Virus record (IMG/VR): IMGVR_UViG_3300044655_000681 | From: an uncultured virus (IMG/VR IMGVR_UViG_3300044655_000681) | Lineage: Duplodnaviria > Heunggongvirae > Uroviricota > Caudoviricetes | DNA: 20,000 bases | Reading direction: 5' to 3' (one strand) | Part shown: positions 2,940-12,338 of the stretch, piece after piece | Position numbering within the stretch: the stretch's first letter is position 1 | Layout: each line of letters opens with the position of its first letter | Position numbers and translations under genes: made by a program | The notes under the pieces: model-generated | The model's database searches: none | The model's input: only the letters and a program-made list of their open reading frames with translations | Told to the model about the DNA's origin: nothing

Positions 2940-3228
2940 AAGCATTTATCTAATAGCAAAATACGCAGGTGTTCCAAAAGATCCAACACAAACTAGTAAA
3001 CCAGGATACATGAAAAATCCTGAGAATATTCATTATGATGAACAAGTATACATTGCTCGTGGCCTAAGGCAAAAAGACCTTCAAAACCAAGTAATTTTGA
3101 ACCTAACTGAAGAGAAAATCATTAAAAACATCTTCAATCCTGGCAAATCTTTTGAAGAAATCTTTACTCACTACTATGACAGCTATGCTGACTATATTGA
3201 CGATTGTGTTAATCAACTAAATTCTTAG
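2929..3228 (+). CDS. hypothetical protein
   Basis: TTG start with SD AAGGA inside the endonuclease 3' end; 99 aa ORF. Confidence 0.7.
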   Translation: MANKSIYLIAKYAGVPKDPTQTSKPGYMKNPENIHYDEQVYIARGLRQKDLQNQVILNLTEEKIIKNIFNPGKSFEEIFTHYYDSYADYIDDCVNQLNS

Positions 3229-4261
3229 TTAGAGAATTATTGATTAATGGTTGCTCTTTAACGCCACAGTGACTATTACAACGCAATAGTCTTCCATCTT
3301 TATAACTAGTCTTAGCCCAAGAGTCTTCTACCTTACTAAACCACTCCATACATTCACGTAAAGGGTGGTTTAACGCATTTATTTTTTGATCTGCTATCAA
3401 TACTTTTACCTGCTCATTACCCCAAGAAGTTGCGGGCCCGTAAGTACTAGAATACATACCTAAATAACAACACGGGCTTATATCACCGTTAGAAGACACA
3501 TAAATTGATCCTTCATTTATAATCTGACAGACTATTTTTTCGTGTACAGGTTCTTGATAGTTTGGACCTGGGAAATTAACAATAACATCTTCTAATTCTT
3601 TATGATATGTTTTATATTTTCCTACGTCTCTAGTACCAATATCATGTGAATAGTCACCATTACGATCGTATACAGTGCCTTGATTCCTACTATGATCAAC
3701 TAGTTCAAACTCAGCGAATCCCAAATCTACCGACATTTGCCTACATGCGTCAATCTGATGTTGATTATGATCAAATTTAATCATTTTCCATCTAGCACAA
3801 CCACCTGCGGCTATATATGTTTTTGCATTGTCTATTACTCGTTGCCAATCAGTGTCTATTCGATACAGATGATGTGTATCTGCTAGACCATCTAGACAAA
3901 AGTGAATTTCTATATTCTTAGTTGCTCCTAATTGATGCCAGAAGTCTTTAGTCCTGGCACTACCGTTGGTGCTTATAAATACTTTTAATTTTGTATTGTT
4001 TGTTTGGAAATATTTGATAATTTCTAGAGCATCTGACGCTAGCATAAAATCACCAAAATTACCATTTAGGTAGATATCTCGCAATCGACTTACAAAACTA
4101 ACGTCAAACATAGTTTTAATATTATCAAGAGAAAGAGAAGTTACTGGGTAACCTAAATTCATCGGGTACCCATGAAAGTTTCTAGGGCACAGAGGGCACC
4201 TAGCATTACAATTTGAAGAGAGCTCTAAATGTAGAGCCCTCACGTCCTCATATTTAATCAT
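3209..4261 (-). CDS. radical SAM protein with C-terminal SPASM/Twitch-like domain
   Basis: CNARCPLC (CxxxCxxC), GNFGD, STNG, FCLDG, and C-terminal C...GDISPCC...C..HC. Confidence 0.9.
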   Translation of the reverse strand: MIKYEDVRALHLELSSNCNARCPLCPRNFHGYPMNLGYPVTSLSLDNIKTMFDVSFVSRLRDIYLNGNFGDFMLASDALEIIKYFQTNNTKLKVFISTNGSARTKDFWHQLGATKNIEIHFCLDGLADTHHLYRIDTDWQRVIDNAKTYIAAGGCARWKMIKFDHNQHQIDACRQMSVDLGFAEFELVDHSRNQGTVYDRNGDYSHDIGTRDVGKYKTYHKELEDVIVNFPGPNYQEPVHEKIVCQIINEGSIYVSSNGDISPCCYLGMYSSTYGPATSWGNEQVKVLIADQKINALNHPLRECMEWFSKVEDSWAKTSYKDGRLLRCNSHCGVKEQPLINNSLTKNLVD

Positions 4262-4266
4262 GCAAT

Positions 4267-4272
4267 TATTTA
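4267..4272 (-). promoter_or_regulatory. TAAATA late-promoter-like element, leaderless arrangement
   Basis: Minus strand reads TAAATA-attgc-ATG with no SD. Sits inside the inverted repeat ATGCAAT/ATTGCAT (4260-4278). Confidence 0.55.
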
Positions 4273-4277
4273 TTGCA

Positions 4278-5021
4278 TTAAATTTCCTTGTAAATTTTTA
4301 ACACCTCCGCAACCGCCGGATGGCGCATAATGTCTCTACTCGCAAATTCTACACCGGCTACGTACTTACTGTGTTGGTACTGTTCAACAAGACCCTTAAA
4401 GTCTAGTAGACCGTTGTCAAGTTCTTTACGGTCAGCCTGACGTGTATCACCTGTTACCACTATTTTGGATCCATCACCGAGTCGCGTTAGGAGCATCTTC
4501 ATCTGTCCAGGAGTGGCGTTTTGCATTTCATCTGCTACTATCCAACTATCCTTAAAAGTGCGACCTCTCATATATGCCAGTGGAGCTATCTCTATTTGTT
4601 GTTCTTCTAGCATACGGGTAATTTCTTTTGGACTCCAGTACTCTGCCATAACATCAAACAGAGGTCTAGTCCACGGTTCCATCTTAGCGTTAATATCACC
4701 TGGTAGGAAACCATGCTTCTCATCATCCACCCCTACCGCTGGACGAGTTAGTACAATCTTCTTCACCTCCCCTTCTTTATAGGCTTTAATACCGGCTAAC
4801 ACGGCTAACATGGTTTTACCCGTACCGGCTGGACCTGTGGCAAAAACAATGCTTTTGTCTTCGTTGGTCAATAAACTAATATATTCTTCTTGATTTATAC
4901 TTTTAGGAATCAGTTGGACTGATTTACGTTGCTGGACATAATTATTAAAACTTAATACGTTCTTATCTTCTGTTGCGAATGCTACTGCGTTGTTACTGCG
5001 TGATCTGCGATGTCTTGACAA
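4278..5021 (-). CDS. phoH: PhoH-family ATPase
   Basis: GPAGTGKT, LTRPAV, GFLPG, PLAYMRGRTF, DEMQN, LTRLG, GDTRQAD, RHP. Start reassigned to TTG at 5021, 6 nt after SD AAGGAG (5033-5028). Confidence 0.93.
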   Translation of the reverse strand: MSRHRRSRSNNAVAFATEDKNVLSFNNYVQQRKSVQLIPKSINQEEYISLLTNEDKSIVFATGPAGTGKTMLAVLAGIKAYKEGEVKKIVLTRPAVGVDDEKHGFLPGDINAKMEPWTRPLFDVMAEYWSPKEITRMLEEQQIEIAPLAYMRGRTFKDSWIVADEMQNATPGQMKMLLTRLGDGSKIVVTGDTRQADRKELDNGLLDFKGLVEQYQHSKYVAGVEFASRDIMRHPAVAEVLKIYKEI

Positions 5022-5071
5022 TTGAAGCTCCTTTGAAGTGTTGTACCGATTAAAGGCATCATGTACACAGA

Positions 5072-5077
5072 TATTTA
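5072..5077 (-). promoter_or_regulatory. TAAATA late-promoter-like element upstream of phoH
   Basis: TATTTA on the plus strand in the intergenic region, about 50 nt upstream of the phoH start. Confidence 0.45.
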
Positions 5078-5138
5078 AGAGCAATTTTTTGGAGGAAAGT
5101 GAGTAGTTATATTTTTAAGATCTAGACTAAGTATTAAG

Positions 5139-5654
5139 CTACCTATGCCACTCAGCATAGATTCTATTTCCAGTATCCCATCTAGCAACGGCCAACCTAA
5201 AACCAAACTGTTCTGCAAATTCGGCTTGTTTAGCAATAGTCCACGGATAAAAGTCTATAAGTTTACACTGGTCATTGTTATGATCTGCTAGTCCCGGATT
5301 ACAACGCCAGTAGATGCGTGCTTTAGGTTTAAGGGCCCTAACTACTATGTTAATTTGATTTAGTATCGTAGCTTCATTGCCGAAGTTAATACTTCCTAAA
5401 CAAAAGGCTACATCGTAACGCTTAACTGGATTAAAATCTTCTACAGCTATTTTATAATCAGCACTTTCGTTAGCAGGATCTATACCAATTAGATCCGGTA
5501 TTCGTAATTTAAATTCATTAAATCCACAACCAACGTCAATTACCTGCTCACCGGATTTAATTTTATCCACTAAGCTCCACCCCGAATAAGTGTATTGGTC
5601 TAAGTTAGATTGCCAAACTGTTGAAAAATAATTATTAAGGTCTTCTTGTCGCAT
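5139..5654 (-). CDS. class I SAM-dependent methyltransferase
   Basis: Motif I VIDVGCG, IGID, YDVAFCLGSINF, LKPKARI. Confidence 0.8.
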   Translation of the reverse strand: MRQEDLNNYFSTVWQSNLDQYTYSGWSLVDKIKSGEQVIDVGCGFNEFKLRIPDLIGIDPANESADYKIAVEDFNPVKRYDVAFCLGSINFGNEATILNQINIVVRALKPKARIYWRCNPGLADHNNDQCKLIDFYPWTIAKQAEFAEQFGFRLAVARWDTGNRIYAEWHR

Positions 5655-5669
5655 ATAATTAATTATATG
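5652..5669. promoter_or_regulatory. perfect 18-bp palindrome CATATAATTAATTATATG carrying both divergent start codons
   Basis: Self-complementary. CAT 5652-5654 is the methyltransferase start and ATG 5667-5669 is the next gene start. Each strand reads TAATTA-N5-ATG. Confidence 0.65.
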
Positions 5670-6233
5670 ACATTACCAAACCACATATTTTTCACAGGTG
5701 TTCCGGGAAGCCGGTGGAGTGGGATTGCACAAGTATTAGAAACAATACCTGGTATGAATACCAGTGACCGTACACCCGAACGTAACTACACCCACCATAC
5801 CTATACAGGACACGTGGGGGCATATTTTGGTCGTGGTATGGAGCTTGACGCTATTCCTGAAGCTAGTTATGTAGATCAAGCATGGGCAGAACTAGGTGGG
5901 TGTAAGTTAGTTAAAAGTCATGATTGGGCATATAAATTAAATGAACTGCCCGGTTGGATCATGCTAGTGTATCGTCCGGACATGAGCAGTTATGCTTGGT
6001 GGCACGAAGCCGGTGGATTTCAAATCAAATATCCCTGTTATGATGCCTACAAGGATAGTGTGGGTATGTTGAGTGAAATTACAGCACAGAATAAAGCCAT
6101 CTTAGAGTTTGGTATGATAAATAACTGTAAGTGGGAGTATTTCACATCCGGGTGGATTAAAGAAAACTTCAACGCAGACATTAATGTAACTAACATCTGG
6201 CCAGATATACTAGTTACATTGATTAAAAAATAA
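5667..6233 (+). CDS. P-loop / sulfotransferase-like protein
   Basis: N-terminal IFFTGVPGSRWS resembles a PAPS-binding loop; LVKSH and MLVYRP follow the sulfotransferase-fold pattern. ATG 5667 preferred over TTG 5646. Confidence 0.5.
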   Translation: MTLPNHIFFTGVPGSRWSGIAQVLETIPGMNTSDRTPERNYTHHTYTGHVGAYFGRGMELDAIPEASYVDQAWAELGGCKLVKSHDWAYKLNELPGWIMLVYRPDMSSYAWWHEAGGFQIKYPCYDAYKDSVGMLSEITAQNKAILEFGMINNCKWEYFTSGWIKENFNADINVTNIWPDILVTLIKK

Positions 6234-6252
6234 CGTTATTATAGGAAATAAA

Positions 6253-6942
6253 ATGAACTCAAAACAATTTGTTGCTAAACTAGCACAAGATAATGAAGCA
6301 CTATTTCGAGCAAGTGAAATGAACGTTGAAGCATACTTTGCTAGTAACCCTAGCCAAGAAGCACTAGTAGAACACTTTACTGGTCGTATGGTTAACGAAC
6401 GTATGAACATGGTTGAAATCTCAGCTAAAGTAGCTAGCGCACCTGCTGATACATCAGTGGAAGACCTAGCATTATTAAGTAAACAAGCATTAGATGAAGC
6501 CAACCATTTCCGTATGGTTAAAGAAGTAATTGAACACATCACAGGCGAGAAAGTTGATGTTGAAGCGGCTATTGCAGCTGAAGCAGCTAAACCAACTGCT
6601 AAAGGTGCTGCGCTATTAGCTAAGTACGAAGCACAAAACGATCCATTGGCACTTGCGGCTTATCAATTCATTGCTGAAGGTCGTGCAGAACGTGTATGGA
6701 ACAAAATGGCTGAATGTATTCAAGACGAATTCATTAGCACAACATACGCTAAGATTGCTAAAGATGAAGGCTTCCACAGCAACATCGGCCGTCGTAGTTT
6801 AGAGTTGTTGGCTACAGATGCTGATACACAAGCACGCATTGAGCAAATTGCTCGCACAATGCGTATGGACTTGTTCGCTGTATCATGTATGAATACAACA
6901 GCAACGTCAGAAGCTGTAAAATTAATGAACAGTGCTTACTAA
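6253..6942 (+). CDS. ferritin-like diiron carboxylate protein
   Basis: All-helical. Ligand pattern E (NERMN), DEANH, E (AEGRA), DEGFH, i.e. two ExxH motifs. SD AGGA upstream. Confidence 0.8.
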   Translation: MNSKQFVAKLAQDNEALFRASEMNVEAYFASNPSQEALVEHFTGRMVNERMNMVEISAKVASAPADTSVEDLALLSKQALDEANHFRMVKEVIEHITGEKVDVEAAIAAEAAKPTAKGAALLAKYEAQNDPLALAAYQFIAEGRAERVWNKMAECIQDEFISTTYAKIAKDEGFHSNIGRRSLELLATDADTQARIEQIARTMRMDLFAVSCMNTTATSEAVKLMNSAY

Positions 6943-6969
6943 GCATAATTAATTATATAAGTTTCAAAC

Positions 6970-6993
6970 AAAAGGGACTTAGGTCCCTTTTTT
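6970..6993 (+). terminator. intrinsic terminator
   Basis: Stem-loop AAAAGGGAC-TTAG-GTCCCTTTT running into a T tract, just after the ferritin-like gene. Confidence 0.8.
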
Positions 6994-7009
6994 AATGACC
7001 AGGATTTCA

Positions 7010-7240
7010 ATGAAAGATTATACAAAGATAGTCAAATGGTTTTCAGCAACAATGATCTTATGTGCTATGCCTTTACATATTTTAGGTATCACTCCCTGGA
7101 ACAGTATCTTACAAATCATCGGTGCTTTCGGTTGGGTTTATGTAGGATTTAAATGGAATGAAAAAAGTTTAATTACCAACTTCTTGCCGCAGATCTTTAT
7201 GATCATTGCTGGATTAATTTACTTTGCCTATTACAAATGA
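7010..7240 (+). CDS. small membrane protein (about 3 TM segments)
   Basis: Hydrophobic throughout. SD AGGA at 7001-7004 favours ATG 7010. ATGA overlap with the next gene. Confidence 0.7.
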   Translation: MKDYTKIVKWFSATMILCAMPLHILGITPWNSILQIIGAFGWVYVGFKWNEKSLITNFLPQIFMIIAGLIYFAYYK

Positions 7241-7773
7241 AAATAGCAATTACCCAACGACAAACAGTAATCAACGGAATCACGTACGACTGCCTTGAAC
7301 AAGGTTGGTACCGTTTATTCTTCGAGCATGAATTAATTATTGTACCAAATTTAGTTCATATAGACTTAGATGTAGATATGCTAGTCTTGTCGGGTGGAAA
7401 TCATACAGAAGCACGCCGCAAAACAGAACTTTGGTGTTGTGAACAAGCAGACAGAACTGGTATTCCTATCTTAGGTGTCTGTCATGGGGCATTCTTTTTA
7501 AACTATGCGTTGGGTGGAATAAATGCGGAAATACACGGCCATCGTAACATTGAACATACCGTCACTATGGAAGGTGAAGAACACACAGTAAACAGCTATC
7601 ATGAACAGTGTATATACGAATTAGGAAAAAATTTAAAACCAGTAGCGTGGACTGACAGTCACACAGAAGCATTCAAACACGTAAACAAACCTATATGGGG
7701 ATTGGTATGGCATCCGGAACGCATGGATGATCCAGTATTGCCCAGTGATTTGAGGAAATTAATTAATGGCTAA
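7237..7773 (+). CDS. class I glutamine amidotransferase / peptidase C26 (gamma-glutamyl hydrolase-like)
   Basis: LSGG, nucleophile motif LGVCHG, VNSYH and catalytic WHPE. Confidence 0.88.
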   Translation: MKIAITQRQTVINGITYDCLEQGWYRLFFEHELIIVPNLVHIDLDVDMLVLSGGNHTEARRKTELWCCEQADRTGIPILGVCHGAFFLNYALGGINAEIHGHRNIEHTVTMEGEEHTVNSYHEQCIYELGKNLKPVAWTDSHTEAFKHVNKPIWGLVWHPERMDDPVLPSDLRKLING

Positions 7774-8395
7774 GAAGATGTTAATATTGACTGGTCCGCA
7801 AGGGGCCGGTAATCATCTATGGAGTAAAATCTTTAGTCTACATCCGGAAGTCTACGGGTGGAAAACTCTATTAGACAACTATTGGGAAGCACATCGTTTC
7901 GCAGAACCGTTTGCCGAATACTGGCGCAATCCTGAGTTACTAAAAGAATTTGATTGGTCGCAAAGTGATTACTATTTTACCAGTATCAGCGTACCATTGG
8001 GTATAGGTGATGCTAAATGGTCACCTGATATAGAAATGTTTGTTAGGAACTTAATGCGTGTCGGCATACATCCCGAGTTAGTAGTGTGTGGCAGAGATCA
8101 AAATATTCTACACCAACAACAGACTAGGCTACGAGGTGAAAATACAATTCCATTATTAATGTCAGCATTGGAATATACCTTTATAGCTCCAAAATTTATT
8201 AGTTATGAGTTATTACAACTATATAAACAACAATACATCAAAACATTAAATTTTAATATACCTGTTGCTTGGGATGATCTTAGGATTAACGAATTTTTAG
8301 CAGAAGACAGTAACGCAAAATACGTTAAGTATGTAGAAGAATATTTTTTAGACGAATGTAATCGTACTGGAACAGTACTAAAACAAAAACCATGA
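7766..8395 (+). CDS. P-loop / sulfotransferase-like protein (paralog A)
   Basis: ILTGPQGAGNHLWSKIFSLHP; clearly homologous to the next ORF. Confidence 0.55.
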   Translation: MAKKMLILTGPQGAGNHLWSKIFSLHPEVYGWKTLLDNYWEAHRFAEPFAEYWRNPELLKEFDWSQSDYYFTSISVPLGIGDAKWSPDIEMFVRNLMRVGIHPELVVCGRDQNILHQQQTRLRGENTIPLLMSALEYTFIAPKFISYELLQLYKQQYIKTLNFNIPVAWDDLRINEFLAEDSNAKYVKYVEEYFLDECNRTGTVLKQKP

Positions 8396-9042
8396 AAACG
8401 TTATTAATAATCACAGGGCCGCAGGGCAGTGGCAATCATTTATTCAGTCGTATCTTAAGTACACATAGTAGTGTAGGTGGATGGAAAAGCCTACTAGACA
8501 AGTATTGGGTTCCTAGCGACGAAGAACCTTTTGCCGAGTTTTGGGTACACCCAGAACGCTTAACAGAAGAACACTTTGATGGGTATGACTACTGGTTAGC
8601 TAATGTTAGTTGCCCGTTCTTCTTCGACGGCACACGCTATATACCTAAAATACTCGAAGTAGCCAAACAAGCCCGTGGCTTTGGAATTGACGTTAAGATT
8701 GCTATTATCACTCGAGATATGAATATTAACGCAGAACAACAGTTACGTGTACGTAAGGAAATAACTACCCCAATTGCGCAGGATTATTACTATAATCATC
8801 TCATTCCCAGCGATTTTCCTATACATTTCCTATCAAACGAAGCCTTATTTTTACACCGAGAGCATTACCTAGGTTACGTAGAAAGAACTTTGAGTTTCCC
8901 TATAGACCGCACTAATCCTAATATTTTTAAGTTTTTAGATCAAGATCCTAATGCTAAGTACGTTAAGCATGTAGACGAATATTGGCTGGATCAAGAAGTA
9001 TGGCACGGTGTACAAGCAAAGAAAGCTCGCGGAATTGAATAA
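8392..9042 (+). CDS. P-loop / sulfotransferase-like protein (paralog B)
   Basis: IITGPQGSGNHLFSRILSTH. Shares GWKxLLDxYW, EPFAExW, RDxNI..QQxRxR and NAKYVKxVxEYxLD with paralog A. Confidence 0.55.
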   Translation: MKTLLIITGPQGSGNHLFSRILSTHSSVGGWKSLLDKYWVPSDEEPFAEFWVHPERLTEEHFDGYDYWLANVSCPFFFDGTRYIPKILEVAKQARGFGIDVKIAIITRDMNINAEQQLRVRKEITTPIAQDYYYNHLIPSDFPIHFLSNEALFLHREHYLGYVERTLSFPIDRTNPNIFKFLDQDPNAKYVKHVDEYWLDQEVWHGVQAKKARGIE

Positions 9043-10152: not shown

Positions 10153-10998
10153 ATGCAGATAAGCGCAGCAATAATCAAATCACTATTTCCAAAATACAAA
10201 CACCCAGAAGACCTAGCAGAAGTACTTACAGAGCAATTTGAAAAGTACGAGATTAACACAGTTAATCGTGCGGCAGGCTTCCTGGCACAATGCGGACATG
10301 AGTCAGCAGGCTTTACAATTCTCAAAGAAAACTTAAACTACTCAGCAGAGGGTTTAAACAAAATCTTTAAAAAATACTTCCCTACACTAGCAGACGCAAC
10401 TCCTTATGCTCGAAATCCACAAAAGATTGCTAATAAAGTATACGGTAATAGAATGGGCAATGGTCCAGAGTCTAGTGGCGATGGATTTAAGTTCTGTGGT
10501 CGTGGCGCTATTCAACTTACGGGTCGCGATAACTATACACAGTTTGCTAAATCAGTAGGATTAACTGTAGAAGAAGCAGTAGCAGACTTAGAAACCTTAG
10601 ATGGTGCTATTGAGTCGGCTTGCTGGTTTTGGAAAAAGAATGGCTTAAACGCTATCTGTGATGCAGATGATATTGTTAAAATGACCAAACGTATCAACGG
10701 TGGTACAATTGGCTTAGAAGACCGTACAAAGCACTACAAAGAAGCTAAACACTTATTAGGTGGTGGACACGTAGCAGAGTCACATGCCGCACCTGCTACA
10801 GCTACAGAGTACGTAACAGTGCGTGTAGGTAGCAATAACGACACAGTTAAAGCAGTACAAAAGGCTCTAGGACAAACAGCAGATGGCAAGTTTGGTCCAG
10901 GTACAGAGAAAGCAGTTAAAGCATGGCAAACAGCGCACGGGCTAACAGCAGACGGTATTGTTGGTCCAGCAACTATCAAAAAAATGCTAGGAGAATAA
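10153..10998 (+). CDS. modular endolysin: glycoside hydrolase family 19 plus C-terminal peptidoglycan-binding domain
   Basis: FLAQCGHES, ENLNYS, GRGAIQLTGRDNY, SACWFW and TKRINGG are GH19 motifs. VKAVQKALG..DGKFGPGTEKAVKAWQ..GLTADGIVGPAT matches PG_binding_1. Confidence 0.93.
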   Translation: MQISAAIIKSLFPKYKHPEDLAEVLTEQFEKYEINTVNRAAGFLAQCGHESAGFTILKENLNYSAEGLNKIFKKYFPTLADATPYARNPQKIANKVYGNRMGNGPESSGDGFKFCGRGAIQLTGRDNYTQFAKSVGLTVEEAVADLETLDGAIESACWFWKKNGLNAICDADDIVKMTKRINGGTIGLEDRTKHYKEAKHLLGGGHVAESHAAPATATEYVTVRVGSNNDTVKAVQKALGQTADGKFGPGTEKAVKAWQTAHGLTADGIVGPATIKKMLGE

Positions 10999-11461: not shown

Positions 11462-11721
11462 GATACTTATTAGTTTTAGCAATATTTTTAGCTGGGTGCG
11501 CAACGACGGTACCAGTTAAACCAAAATGGCCAGAGGTTCCTGCTGATTTAACAACTACCTGCGATAAGTTAGGTGAAGTTAAAGCAGATACTAAAAAGCT
11601 AAGTGAAGTAGTAGGTGTAGTTGTAGACAATTACGCACTGTATCATGAATGTCACGTTAAGGTGGACGGTTGGACTGATTGGTACAATGAACAGAAAAAA
11701 GTCTACGAAGAAGTTAAATAA
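11458..11721 (+). CDS. outer-membrane lipoprotein spanin (Rz1-like)
   Basis: Lipobox FLAG-C, a Pro-rich stretch (VPVKPKWPEVPA) and additional Cys residues. Confidence 0.8.
   Translation: MRYLLVLAIFLAGCATTVPVKPKWPEVPADLTTTCDKLGEVKADTKKLSEVVGVVVDNYALYHECHVKVDGWTDWYNEQKKVYEEVK
11715..11720 (+). promoter_or_regulatory. TAAATA late-promoter-like element upstream of the holin
   Basis: Upstream of SD AAGGAG and ATG 11749. Confidence 0.45.
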
Positions 11722-11748
11722 TATTATAATAACACAAGGAGCAAGACA

Positions 11749-12039
11749 ATGACAACTCAAGCAGAAAAGAAATCAGAAGATTGGATGACCACAAAATGGC
11801 GTCCGTTAATGGCTGTAACATATATGGCTACTATCTGGTTTGATTTTATTTTAGGACCGATCCTATTCAACATACTACAATACTGGAATCCAGGACAAGC
11901 AATTGGCATGTGGGTACCGTTGACCTTACAAGGTGGTGGTTTATACCATATCTCCATGGGTGCTATTTTAGGTATCGCAGCTTGGACACGCGGTAAAGAA
12001 AAAGTAGCAAGCATTGAAGCAGGTGAAGCGGGAAAGTAA
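11749..12039 (+). CDS. holin (GTA 3TM-holin-like)
   Basis: 96 aa, KWRP motif, two hydrophobic segments, charged C-terminus (RGKEK), located in the lysis cassette. Confidence 0.75.
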   Translation: MTTQAEKKSEDWMTTKWRPLMAVTYMATIWFDFILGPILFNILQYWNPGQAIGMWVPLTLQGGGLYHISMGAILGIAAWTRGKEKVASIEAGEAGK

Positions 12040-12072
12040 CAGGGTTTGAGGACACCCCCGTAACAAGTCCTT
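12030..12072 (+). promoter_or_regulatory. putative programmed -1 ribosomal frameshift signal
   Basis: In-frame G_GGA_AAG (12030-12036) directly before TAA, a 5-nt spacer, then possible pseudoknot stems GGGT/ACCC and GAGGAC/GTCCTT. Confidence 0.7.
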
Positions 12073-12275
12073 CAGAGCCTGTTTGGTTAAGCCAAAGCGC
12101 ACCAGAGGATAACGTACCTGTAGCAGCAGATCAACCAGCAGTGGTTAACGACCCAGAAGTTGCTAAAGGTTATGCTGAAGCTATTTCAGGCTATACTGCT
12201 CCAGAAGCAACAGAAGTTGTGACTGAACCCGTAGCAGTTAGTACAGATCGTCCATTGCGTAGGAAAAAATCGTAA
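12036..12275 (+). CDS. -1 frame C-terminal extension of the holin (79 aa)
   Basis: Open frame VTGFEDTPVTSPSEPVWLSQSAPEDNVPVAADQPAVVNDPEVAKGYAEAISGYTAPEATEVVTEPVAVSTDRPLRRKKS*. Bounded upstream by TGA 12024-12026, with no ATG of its own. Confidence 0.65.
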   Translation, partial: VTGFEDTPVTSPSEPVWLSQSAPEDNVPVAADQPAVVNDPEVAKGYAEAISGYTAPEATEVVTEPVAVSTDRPLRRKKS

Positions 12276-12299
12276 CAGGTAAATTGAAGTAGTAAATAT

Positions 12300-12328
12300 A
12301 AAGGAGAGCTTGACAGTTCTCCTTTTTT
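12300..12328 (+). terminator. intrinsic terminator after the lysis cassette
   Basis: Hairpin AAAGGAGAGC-TTGACA-GTTCTCCTTT followed by a T tract. Confidence 0.7.
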
Positions 12329-12338
12329 ATTATATAAT
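12310..12338 (+). promoter_or_regulatory. consensus sigma70 promoter for dnaJ
   Basis: TTGACA 12310-12315, 17 bp, TATAAT 12333-12338. ATG follows 7 nt downstream with no SD. Confidence 0.8.

Follow-up and report, generated by a model that had tools for sequence, protein, structure and literature searches.

The holin-family gene that closes the lysis cassette of a large tailed phage carries a slippery heptamer directly at its stop codon, followed by an H-type pseudoknot and an open -1 frame; very likely (with a probability of roughly 0.9) programmed -1 frameshifting yields two isoforms from this gene, one of 96 aa and a predicted long form of 175 aa (96 + 79). The DNA analysed, called the window here, is a stretch of 20,000 nucleotides from an uncultured virus, and its relevant features are collected in Table 1. 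The first-pass annotation had proposed this same pair of isoforms; every coordinate it claimed for the ORF, the heptamer, the -1 frame and the stop codons checks, and the proposal has strong support from the conservation of heptamer and tail, the constraint on synonymous positions, the covariation of the pseudoknot and the homology of the tail. The wider explanation, in which the frameshift cassette supplies a mixed oligomer and the tail tunes holin triggering, is put forward with moderate confidence.

Table 1. Features of the lysis cassette and of the frameshift site in the window
Feature	Position	Strand	Basis
Endolysin, 281 aa, glycoside hydrolase 19-like catalytic domain and C-terminal peptidoglycan-binding domain	10153..10998	+	Pfam, PHROG
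i-spanin-like protein, 153 aa	11000..11461	+	PHROGs Rz-like spanin, E 2e-5
o-spanin-like lipoprotein, 87 aa	11458..11721	+	Pfam LysC, 33 bits (above cut-off); PHROGs Rz-like spanin
Shine-Dalgarno-like AAGGAG, 7 nt 5′ of the holin start	11736..11741	+	sequence reading
Holin-family ORF, frame 0, 96 aa, two-helix membrane hairpin (predicted short isoform)	11749..12039	+	Pfam, PHROG, AlphaFold2
Slippery heptamer G_GGA_AAG, phased X_XXY_YYZ	12030..12036	+	sequence, conservation
Frame-0 stop codon TAA directly after the shift site	12037..12039	+	sequence
-1 frame, 79 codons, acidic Pro/Ala/Val-rich tail, predicted disordered	12036..12275	+	codon usage, homology
Pseudoknot stem 1 (12042-12045 with 12054-12057), beginning 5 nt past the heptamer	12042..12057	+	pairing in relatives
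Stem 2 of the pseudoknot, 12047-12051 pairing with 12070-12074 (relatives reach up to 6-7 pairs)	12047..12074	+	covariation
Basic C-terminal motif D-R-P-L-R-R-K-K-S of the -1 tail	12246..12272	+	conservation of RPxRR end
Intrinsic-terminator-like hairpin closing the lysis cassette	12300..12325	+	sequence

The holin frame ends with GCG GGA AAG TAA, and G_GGA_AAG is, as annotated at first, phased for -1 slippage and placed directly before the stop. The -1 frame is closed by a TGA 5′ of the heptamer (12024-12026) and is then open to a TAA (12273-12275); it lacks an ATG, a GTG is found at 12141, and its phage-like codon usage was borne out when scored with the window genes as reference, the tail reaching 0.23 versus -0.45 and -0.25 in the other frames. 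Previously described as acidic, Pro/Ala-rich and ending in RPLRRKKS, the tail retains that description in its composition; of its end, RPxRR recurs in 36 of the 38 loci termed type A below. It is homologous to the in-frame tails of two relatives (L014 and L022), and this homology starts directly after the heptamer. Among the 6108 codon positions of the 27 ORFs of the window there are 162 phased relaxed heptamers; a pseudoknot score of at least 21 follows four of these, and the holin site is the sole perfect heptamer with such a score, which 30 of 1500 random positions also reach as a chance control. Imperfect heptamers with pseudoknot-like pairings scoring 21-26 are located at 5171 (-), 16301 (+) and 16606 (+); they are within the chance rate of about 2%. 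According to passages of a review (PMC5009743), G_GGA_AAG is highly shift-prone in E. coli and usual spacers measure 5-9 nt; the 5 nt found here lie within this range for stimulators of -1 frameshifting.

A 1-nt assembly error, which the first-pass annotation had named as a possible refutation, is contradicted by contigs of two runs from separate studies, which span 11937-12319 and 11960-12319 with zero differences and zero gaps; an assembly slip as the source of the frame break is excluded by the base-for-base agreement of these independent contigs. Neither of these two runs is the one flagged as a possible source of the window. In none of the four runs compared was an indel listed, these being contigs, in which minority indel transcripts cannot show. 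For this reason slippage by RNA polymerase, not by the ribosome, could be invoked as the maker of the second form, the more so as the two mechanisms interchange in dnaX (sections of PMC3711429). Yet the site lacks a run of at least eight equal bases, the usual slippage motif in the same sections of PMC3711429; a codon-phased motif with a 3′ pseudoknot at ribosome spacing is present in both polarities of the cassette (see below); and an RNA contig of a relative crosses the slip site without a gap, although this is one short contig from an RNA run and not informative on expression. Polymerase slippage is thus considered highly improbable.

Relatives were collected as 35 loci via protein, the best 80 of 468 viral matches and, from metagenomes, the best 80 of at least 480 (both by alignment-based search, with some contigs present in both collections), together with two cultured-phage regions; of the resulting 170 rows, including the window, six were cut by a contig end and dropped, leaving 164 complete loci. 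A phased G_GGA_AAR at the stop, designated type A (tail gained by the -1 shift), is found in 38 of the 164 (28 with AAA, 10 with AAG), which correspond to 33 distinct genes and 25 distinct 55-nt contexts. The frame-0 stop follows the heptamer after 0, 1 or 3 codons in 33, 1 and 4 of these loci, respectively. In 36 of the 38, an open -1 frame of 62-93 codons leads to an RPxRR end; the length varies, the frame is kept. The homolog alignment suggested in the first-pass annotation as a check has thereby found heptamer, covarying pseudoknot and -1 ORF all conserved. The two exceptions are L104, which is cut by the contig end, and L103, whose cassette (L103:2273-2330) has a stop four codons into the -1 frame that also breaks a stem-2 pair while the remaining tail is intact; a natural null, readthrough or an assembly error are possible explanations. 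A pattern scan for further cassettes returned seven contigs, all among the loci already collected. Four listed proteins are odd: in P0043 the holin core is continued by what corresponds to the +1 frame in type-A genes, and P0045, P0047 and P0054 are type-A short forms with extra N-terminal sequence, which in two of them resembles the upstream small gene; these are probably indels or mis-called starts.

Constraint at the slip site is visible at the level of codons. GGA is preceded by an NCG codon in all 33 distinct type-A genes while the encoded residue varies (Ala 20, Ser 10, Pro 3); in gene bodies 82 of 820 NCN codons (10%) end in G, and GGA accounts for 37 of 302 Gly codons. Over 29 type-A tails the mean codon-usage score is 0.149 versus -0.47 and -0.33 in the other frames, and the other two frames contain at least three stops each across the tails. 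In 28 distinct tails the body has a net charge of -5 to -16 and the last nine residues one of +4 to +6. Pairing energies with the anti-Shine-Dalgarno sequence range from -3.2 to -13.0 across the 33 type-A genes, with no element at a fixed spacing.

It could be argued that there is no recoding at all, the -1 frame being either a gene of its own that is started independently, what is left of a formerly continuous gene in decay, or the product of an assembly error; the GTG at 12141, which had been named beforehand as a candidate for independent initiation, the existence of continuous relatives and the internal stop of L103 would fit. However, the type-A -1 frames share no start codon position, and the whole -1 frames of L012, L015 and L094, all complete tails, are devoid of ATG, GTG and TTG. 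Intact frames in 36 of the 38 loci, homology to in-frame tails that begins right behind the heptamer, identical independent contigs and the presence of a shift cassette in the close relatives that look continuous are further arguments against it, and there seems to be very little chance that this idea is correct.

The 25 distinct type-A contexts align without gaps. Stem 1 contains three invariant G-C pairs in 25 of 25 contexts. Its synonymous positions are fixed as well, the Gly codon being GGG in 25 of 25 (4 of 302 in gene bodies) and the C-ending codon NCC likewise in 25 of 25, which is why protein constraint is no explanation for stem 1. The H-type pseudoknot of the first-pass annotation stood with regard to stem 1 and to the covarying knot as a whole, whereas its stem 2 was one base off: in the register 12048-53/12067-72 pairing is feasible for the window sequence itself, but only 62% of the cells pair in the 25 contexts, and sliding by +1 improves this to 83%, with four pairs changed on both sides. 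Two of these stem-2 pairs switch between G-C and A-U in eight sequences each with zero unpaired cells, and a third between C-G and A-U in five. For the whole type-A pseudoknot 86.5% of the cells pair, and the covariation, which counts sequences rather than independent events and carries no kinship correction, is 0.258; 0 of 500 shuffles reach this value, and controls in slid registers give 0.02-0.13 (maximum 0.126). A competing hairpin (12038-12083; stem 2 plus flanks) is predicted in the window at -19.3 kcal/mol, by eye not generally among the relatives; its 5′ arm would sit inside the ribosome at the shift site. Rfam returned five matches at E values up to 5, all far below their own cut-offs. 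A covariance model scores the window and two type-A controls at 32-50 bits and gave no match under E 0.1 in 97 loci without the frameshift cassette.

Six close relatives (L014, L017, L018, L022, L023 and L027; four distinct) have the long form in frame 0 and are designated type B (tail lost by the -1 shift). Their genes encode 180-191 aa and look continuous, and their tails align with the type-A -1 tails. The first-pass annotation had counted homologs with one continuous ORF against frameshifting; such close relatives do exist, but they themselves carry a shift cassette. In type B the pseudoknot is retained, one base farther downstream, and the slippery site ahead of it reads G_GGU_UUU or A_CCU_UUU; a ribosome slipping there into the -1 frame would meet a stop as its first new codon, from which short forms of 95-99 aa are predicted. 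In L017 and L018 stem 2 is of different sequence and still pairs. In a mixed alignment of six A and four B contexts, 7 of 11 pairs are changed on both sides (6 of 7 for stem 2), and the covariation of 0.489 is reached by 0 of 500 shuffles. Among 371 protein matches to L014, 42 of the 120 listed have an X-F-[N/S] junction (S-F-S 27, G-F-N 9, D-F-N 3, three singles); judged by their protein sequence, these are presumably type B, with Phe-Asn/Ser codons hiding the -1 stop. A DNA pattern for the commonest reversed subtype gave zero matches and a protein scan with P0025 only nine contigs, all already known, so this subtype is known from protein only.

Identical 84-aa membrane cores occur with both polarities, and of the 48 loci with an identity of at least 78%, 44 have either the type-A or the type-B cassette. 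On a DNA tree of the holin core, type A as one clade is rejected (p-AU 0.0007) and type B as one clade is not (p-AU 0.33; four rows); a DnaJ tree, with a long-branch warning, has the B rows in three places, and the protein tree, of 77 rows, was built by a quick method from 84 columns. By these sequences the holin core is mosaic, and the trees do not fix the number or direction of polarity flips. Since both polarities retain both products, the mixture appears to be what selection keeps; the opposite polarities among relatives suggest that having both forms is what matters.

The cassette is absent from 120 of the 164 complete loci. In 117 of these the number of residues after the core is at most 20 in 45 and more than 40 in 56, and the tail-less or the tailed form can apparently serve alone in such members. 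Of 45 listed proteins ending in RPxRR, 11 lack the F-[N/S] junction; by sequence, some relatives seem to make only the long form. A scan of GTDB found six loci, none with the frameshift cassette, and led to no host assignment.

The order of the lysis genes is endolysin, i-spanin-like, o-spanin-like and, as last of four, the holin-family ORF, followed by the terminator-like hairpin. The endolysin matches Pfam PG_binding_1 with 54 bits, Glyco_hydro_19 with 24.6 bits, slightly below cut-off, and PHROG 181 (endolysin) with E 8e-78; Pfam gave no match for the i-spanin-like protein. Neighbourhoods were inspected in 43 of the 164 loci. An o-spanin-like gene precedes the holin-family gene in 25 of the 25 cassette-bearing loci inspected and an endolysin gene is present, within fetched DNA, in 23; all 25 cassette-bearing loci and 11 of the 18 cassette-free ones have lysis genes (endolysin or spanin) close to the holin-family gene. 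The gene is single-copy in 5 of 5 records searched, and the lysis cassette of the window contains no second holin candidate. In most relatives two small genes lie between o-spanin and holin (for example L008:1835-2248 and L099:1761-1967), one encoding about 135 aa that begin like a lipoprotein, the other 64-84 aa; both are absent from the window (11721-11749), L017 and L018. Profile searches assigned them to no clear family, and they are candidates for lysis regulators. In 13 of the 43 inspected loci (for example L014:3141-3854) holin and dnaJ are separated by a Methyltransf_24 gene, which the window lacks. In the window, a sigma-70-type promoter with a perfect score of 12/12 (12310-12338) precedes dnaJ, and its -35 box is located inside the terminator-like hairpin.

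From family profiles and gene order the protein of the lysis cassette is likely to be a holin. It matches Pfam GTA_holin_3TM (PF11351) with 27.8 bits, above the curated cut-off of 24.8, at profile positions 56-117 of 123, and PHROG 3427 "holin" with E 1e-7; two relatives score 25.3 (P0025) and 22.9 bits (P0002, below cut-off) with PF11351. In the nearest Atlas clusters 25-64% of the members belong to the GTA_holin_3TM family, and NCBIfam gave no match for the ORF. The family comprises 1065 representatives at E 0.001. AlphaFold2 models the short form as a helical hairpin (pLDDT 87.9; helices 12-46 and 58-95) and a natural long form as the same two helices with an unstructured tail; unlike GTA_holin_3TM, with three helices, both models have two long helices, and the sequence has two hydrophobic stretches. 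The 19-residue hydropathy peaks of the ORF are 1.58 and 1.1, the second helix being weakly hydrophobic. Each helix is bordered by basic residues and the loop carries no charge, a pattern that suggests both protein ends to be inside. Foldseek found no match to the model in the PDB; another fold search gave a best Z of 6.8, to generic helical hairpins, and the only viral models matched belong to the same family.

Alternatively, the frameshift might be real and the protein an accessory one, membrane- or virion-associated (a scaffold, lysis regulator or tether) with a stoichiometric role like that of gpG/gpGT or DnaX tau/gamma. The PA5oct homolog gp306 is annotated "structural protein, ESI-MS/MS", that is, from the virion; no lysis gene is annotated near the homologs in Phosso, Atu_ph07 and Callisto; and in 7 of the 18 cassette-free loci inspected no lysis gene is near within the fetched DNA. 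Five loci with cassette-free homologs (L024, L025, L046, L056 and L112), likewise with no lysis gene in the fetched DNA, place them among what we take to be T4-like head-completion and baseplate-hub genes. Moreover, a link to a tested holin was not reproduced: a part of a preprint (bioRxiv 10.1101/790493) reports TeaA as a PF11351-linked holin by remote homology, but ICP1 ORF137 (TeaA; L278:725-1273) gave no hmmscan match to PF11351 at E 0.05, and neither it nor ORF138 a profile match to a 20-sequence alignment of the family. On the other hand, both Pfam and PHROG holin matches are above threshold, the gene is the last of the endolysin-spanin cassette in all 25 cassette-bearing loci, lysis genes are near 11 of the 18 others in different gene backgrounds, and the window's lysis cassette offers no other holin candidate. 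An accessory role is therefore regarded as unlikely.

In the explanation favoured here, the compact H-type pseudoknot, 5 nt downstream of the heptamer, would confront the ribosome while tRNA-Gly is on GGA and tRNA-Lys on AAG. The majority of ribosomes, or at any rate many, would stop at the next codon and release the 96-aa two-helix membrane hairpin; a fraction would slip back by one base (tandem tRNA slippage) and add the 79-aa disordered, acidic tail with its basic RPxRRKK end, giving 175 aa. Having the same membrane part, the isoforms should insert alike and mix in one oligomer, of which only some subunits would carry the tail. The tail would most likely tune holin triggering, whether sterically, through its charge or as a tether for a partner, and the frameshift rate would set the mix; that the tail is a regulator of lysis timing seems reasonably probable. 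The basic C-terminus of lambda S has a like role in tuning triggering.

A strict holin/antiholin pair in the manner of lambda S105/S107, in which the pseudoknot cassette sets the ratio of holin to tailed regulator and the shift rate is the lysis clock, would be a special case of this explanation. Holin/antiholin pairs from one gene are known (in part of PMC9636201), cytoplasmic holin domains have been shown to be regulatory sites that tune triggering in phiKZ (in part of PMC12894885), and both forms are retained in both polarities. But phages whose 84-aa cores are identical differ in polarity, by which the ratio would be inverted unless shifting is at about 50%, and in the cassette-free loci a short end or a long tail apparently serves alone. 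That near-identical holins differ in their default product implies that the shift rate is high (about 1:1) or that the ratio is loosely constrained; for comparison, the ratio of the two lambda products is about 30:1, and shifting in E. coli dnaX occurs at 50% (passages of PMC5009743 and PMC3711429). A mixed oligomer, with a regulatory tail on some of its subunits, agrees better with this than a strict minor antiholin does, and we doubt that the frameshift rate acts as a clock in this sense. If it did, swapping the slippery site would flip the polarity (Gly-Lys, tail gained; Gly/Pro/Ser/Asp-Phe, tail lost), and lysis time would evolve by recoding and might respond to the translation state of the host.

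The arrangement resembles several known systems in part. Lambda gpG/gpGT and related tail-chaperone shifts (passages of PMC5009743) share the G_GGA_AAG-type heptamer at the end of frame 0 and the C-terminal extension, and the GGGAAAG extension of the Kuravirus capsid protein (part of PMC9965538) shares the short and the C-terminally extended product; those are tail chaperones or capsid proteins, whereas here a membrane protein of the lysis cassette is concerned, whose pseudoknot covaries and some of whose relatives have the polarity reversed. Bacterial dnaX likewise makes two nested products, tau and gamma, from one gene, with both polarities in the family, the reversed type being the one in which the long form depends on the shift, and employs A_AAA_AAG or poly-A together with a stem-loop and Shine-Dalgarno stimulator or polymerase slippage (passages of PMC3711429 and PMC5009743). 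Unlike in dnaX, the polarity here differs between close phage relatives, the pseudoknot being kept and the slippery site swapped, and no Shine-Dalgarno-like element is found at a fixed spacing. Lambda S105/S107 and phage 21 S68/S71 are also two forms from one holin gene; these differ by 2-3 N-terminal residues through two start codons (part of PMC9636201), in contrast to the forms predicted here, which would differ by a 79-aa C-terminal tail through recoding in the elongation phase. As to a dual start of the lambda S type, the gene has one Shine-Dalgarno-like motif, before Met1, and none was seen by eye before the conserved Met13. Non-standard decoding has been proposed for lysis control in MS2 (coat/lysis frameshift) and in a Lactococcus phage (lysin from two overlapping genes; both cited in part of PMC10274946) and in the form of stop-codon recoding biased to lysis genes (part of bioRxiv 10.1101/2021.08.26.457843); as far as described there, none of these cases involves isoforms of a holin or a holin gene with a heptamer-pseudoknot cassette.

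A literature search over titles and the beginnings of abstracts, with few subscription papers and with supplementary frameshift lists (PMC10274946, PMC3711429) outside its scope, found no paper on frameshift-made holin isoforms. The word "holin" is absent from the first 300,000 of the 449,034 characters of the Atkins review (PMC5009743) and from the text of PRFect (PMC10274946) and of the GeneTack survey (PMC3711429), and "frameshift" from that of a holin/spanin review (PMC9636201). Lysis timing sets the burst size of a phage, and the known two-form holins act at initiation, by dual start; if the proposal is true, a conserved switch in the elongation phase is a new control point of lysis, phage frameshifting extends beyond tail, capsid and polymerase genes, and standard annotation has missed a long (or short) product in dozens of genomes. 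The opposite polarities in close relatives constitute a natural experiment, with matched cassettes of one small pseudoknot and two slippery sites; the frameshift cassette measures about 50 nt and the gene less than 600 nt.

In the window, which belongs to the genome of a large tailed phage, are a DnaE fragment and genes for GroES, a clamp loader, PhoH, DnaJ and a ClpA-like protein; a search of the window for tRNA genes found none. Two of its virion proteins have their nearest cultured relatives in PA5oct-like Pseudomonas phages (38.7%) and Atu_ph07 (34%). Contigs of relatives of 219 kb and 202 kb are rated 62% and 56% complete, from which a phage genome of about 350 kb follows. All 24 runs listed with a match to the window stretch are lake or freshwater metagenomes. 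A block of metabolic appearance (3209-9042) encodes a radical SAM protein, PhoH, a class I glutamine amidotransferase, which resembles gamma-glutamyl-CDP-amidate hydrolase, and several ORFs without assignment; two ORFs in it (7766-8395 and 8392-9042) have N-termini that are alike. At 2-271 a DnaE-like ORF ends, stopping at about residue 390 of the profile, which suggests that the gene for DNA polymerase III alpha is split.
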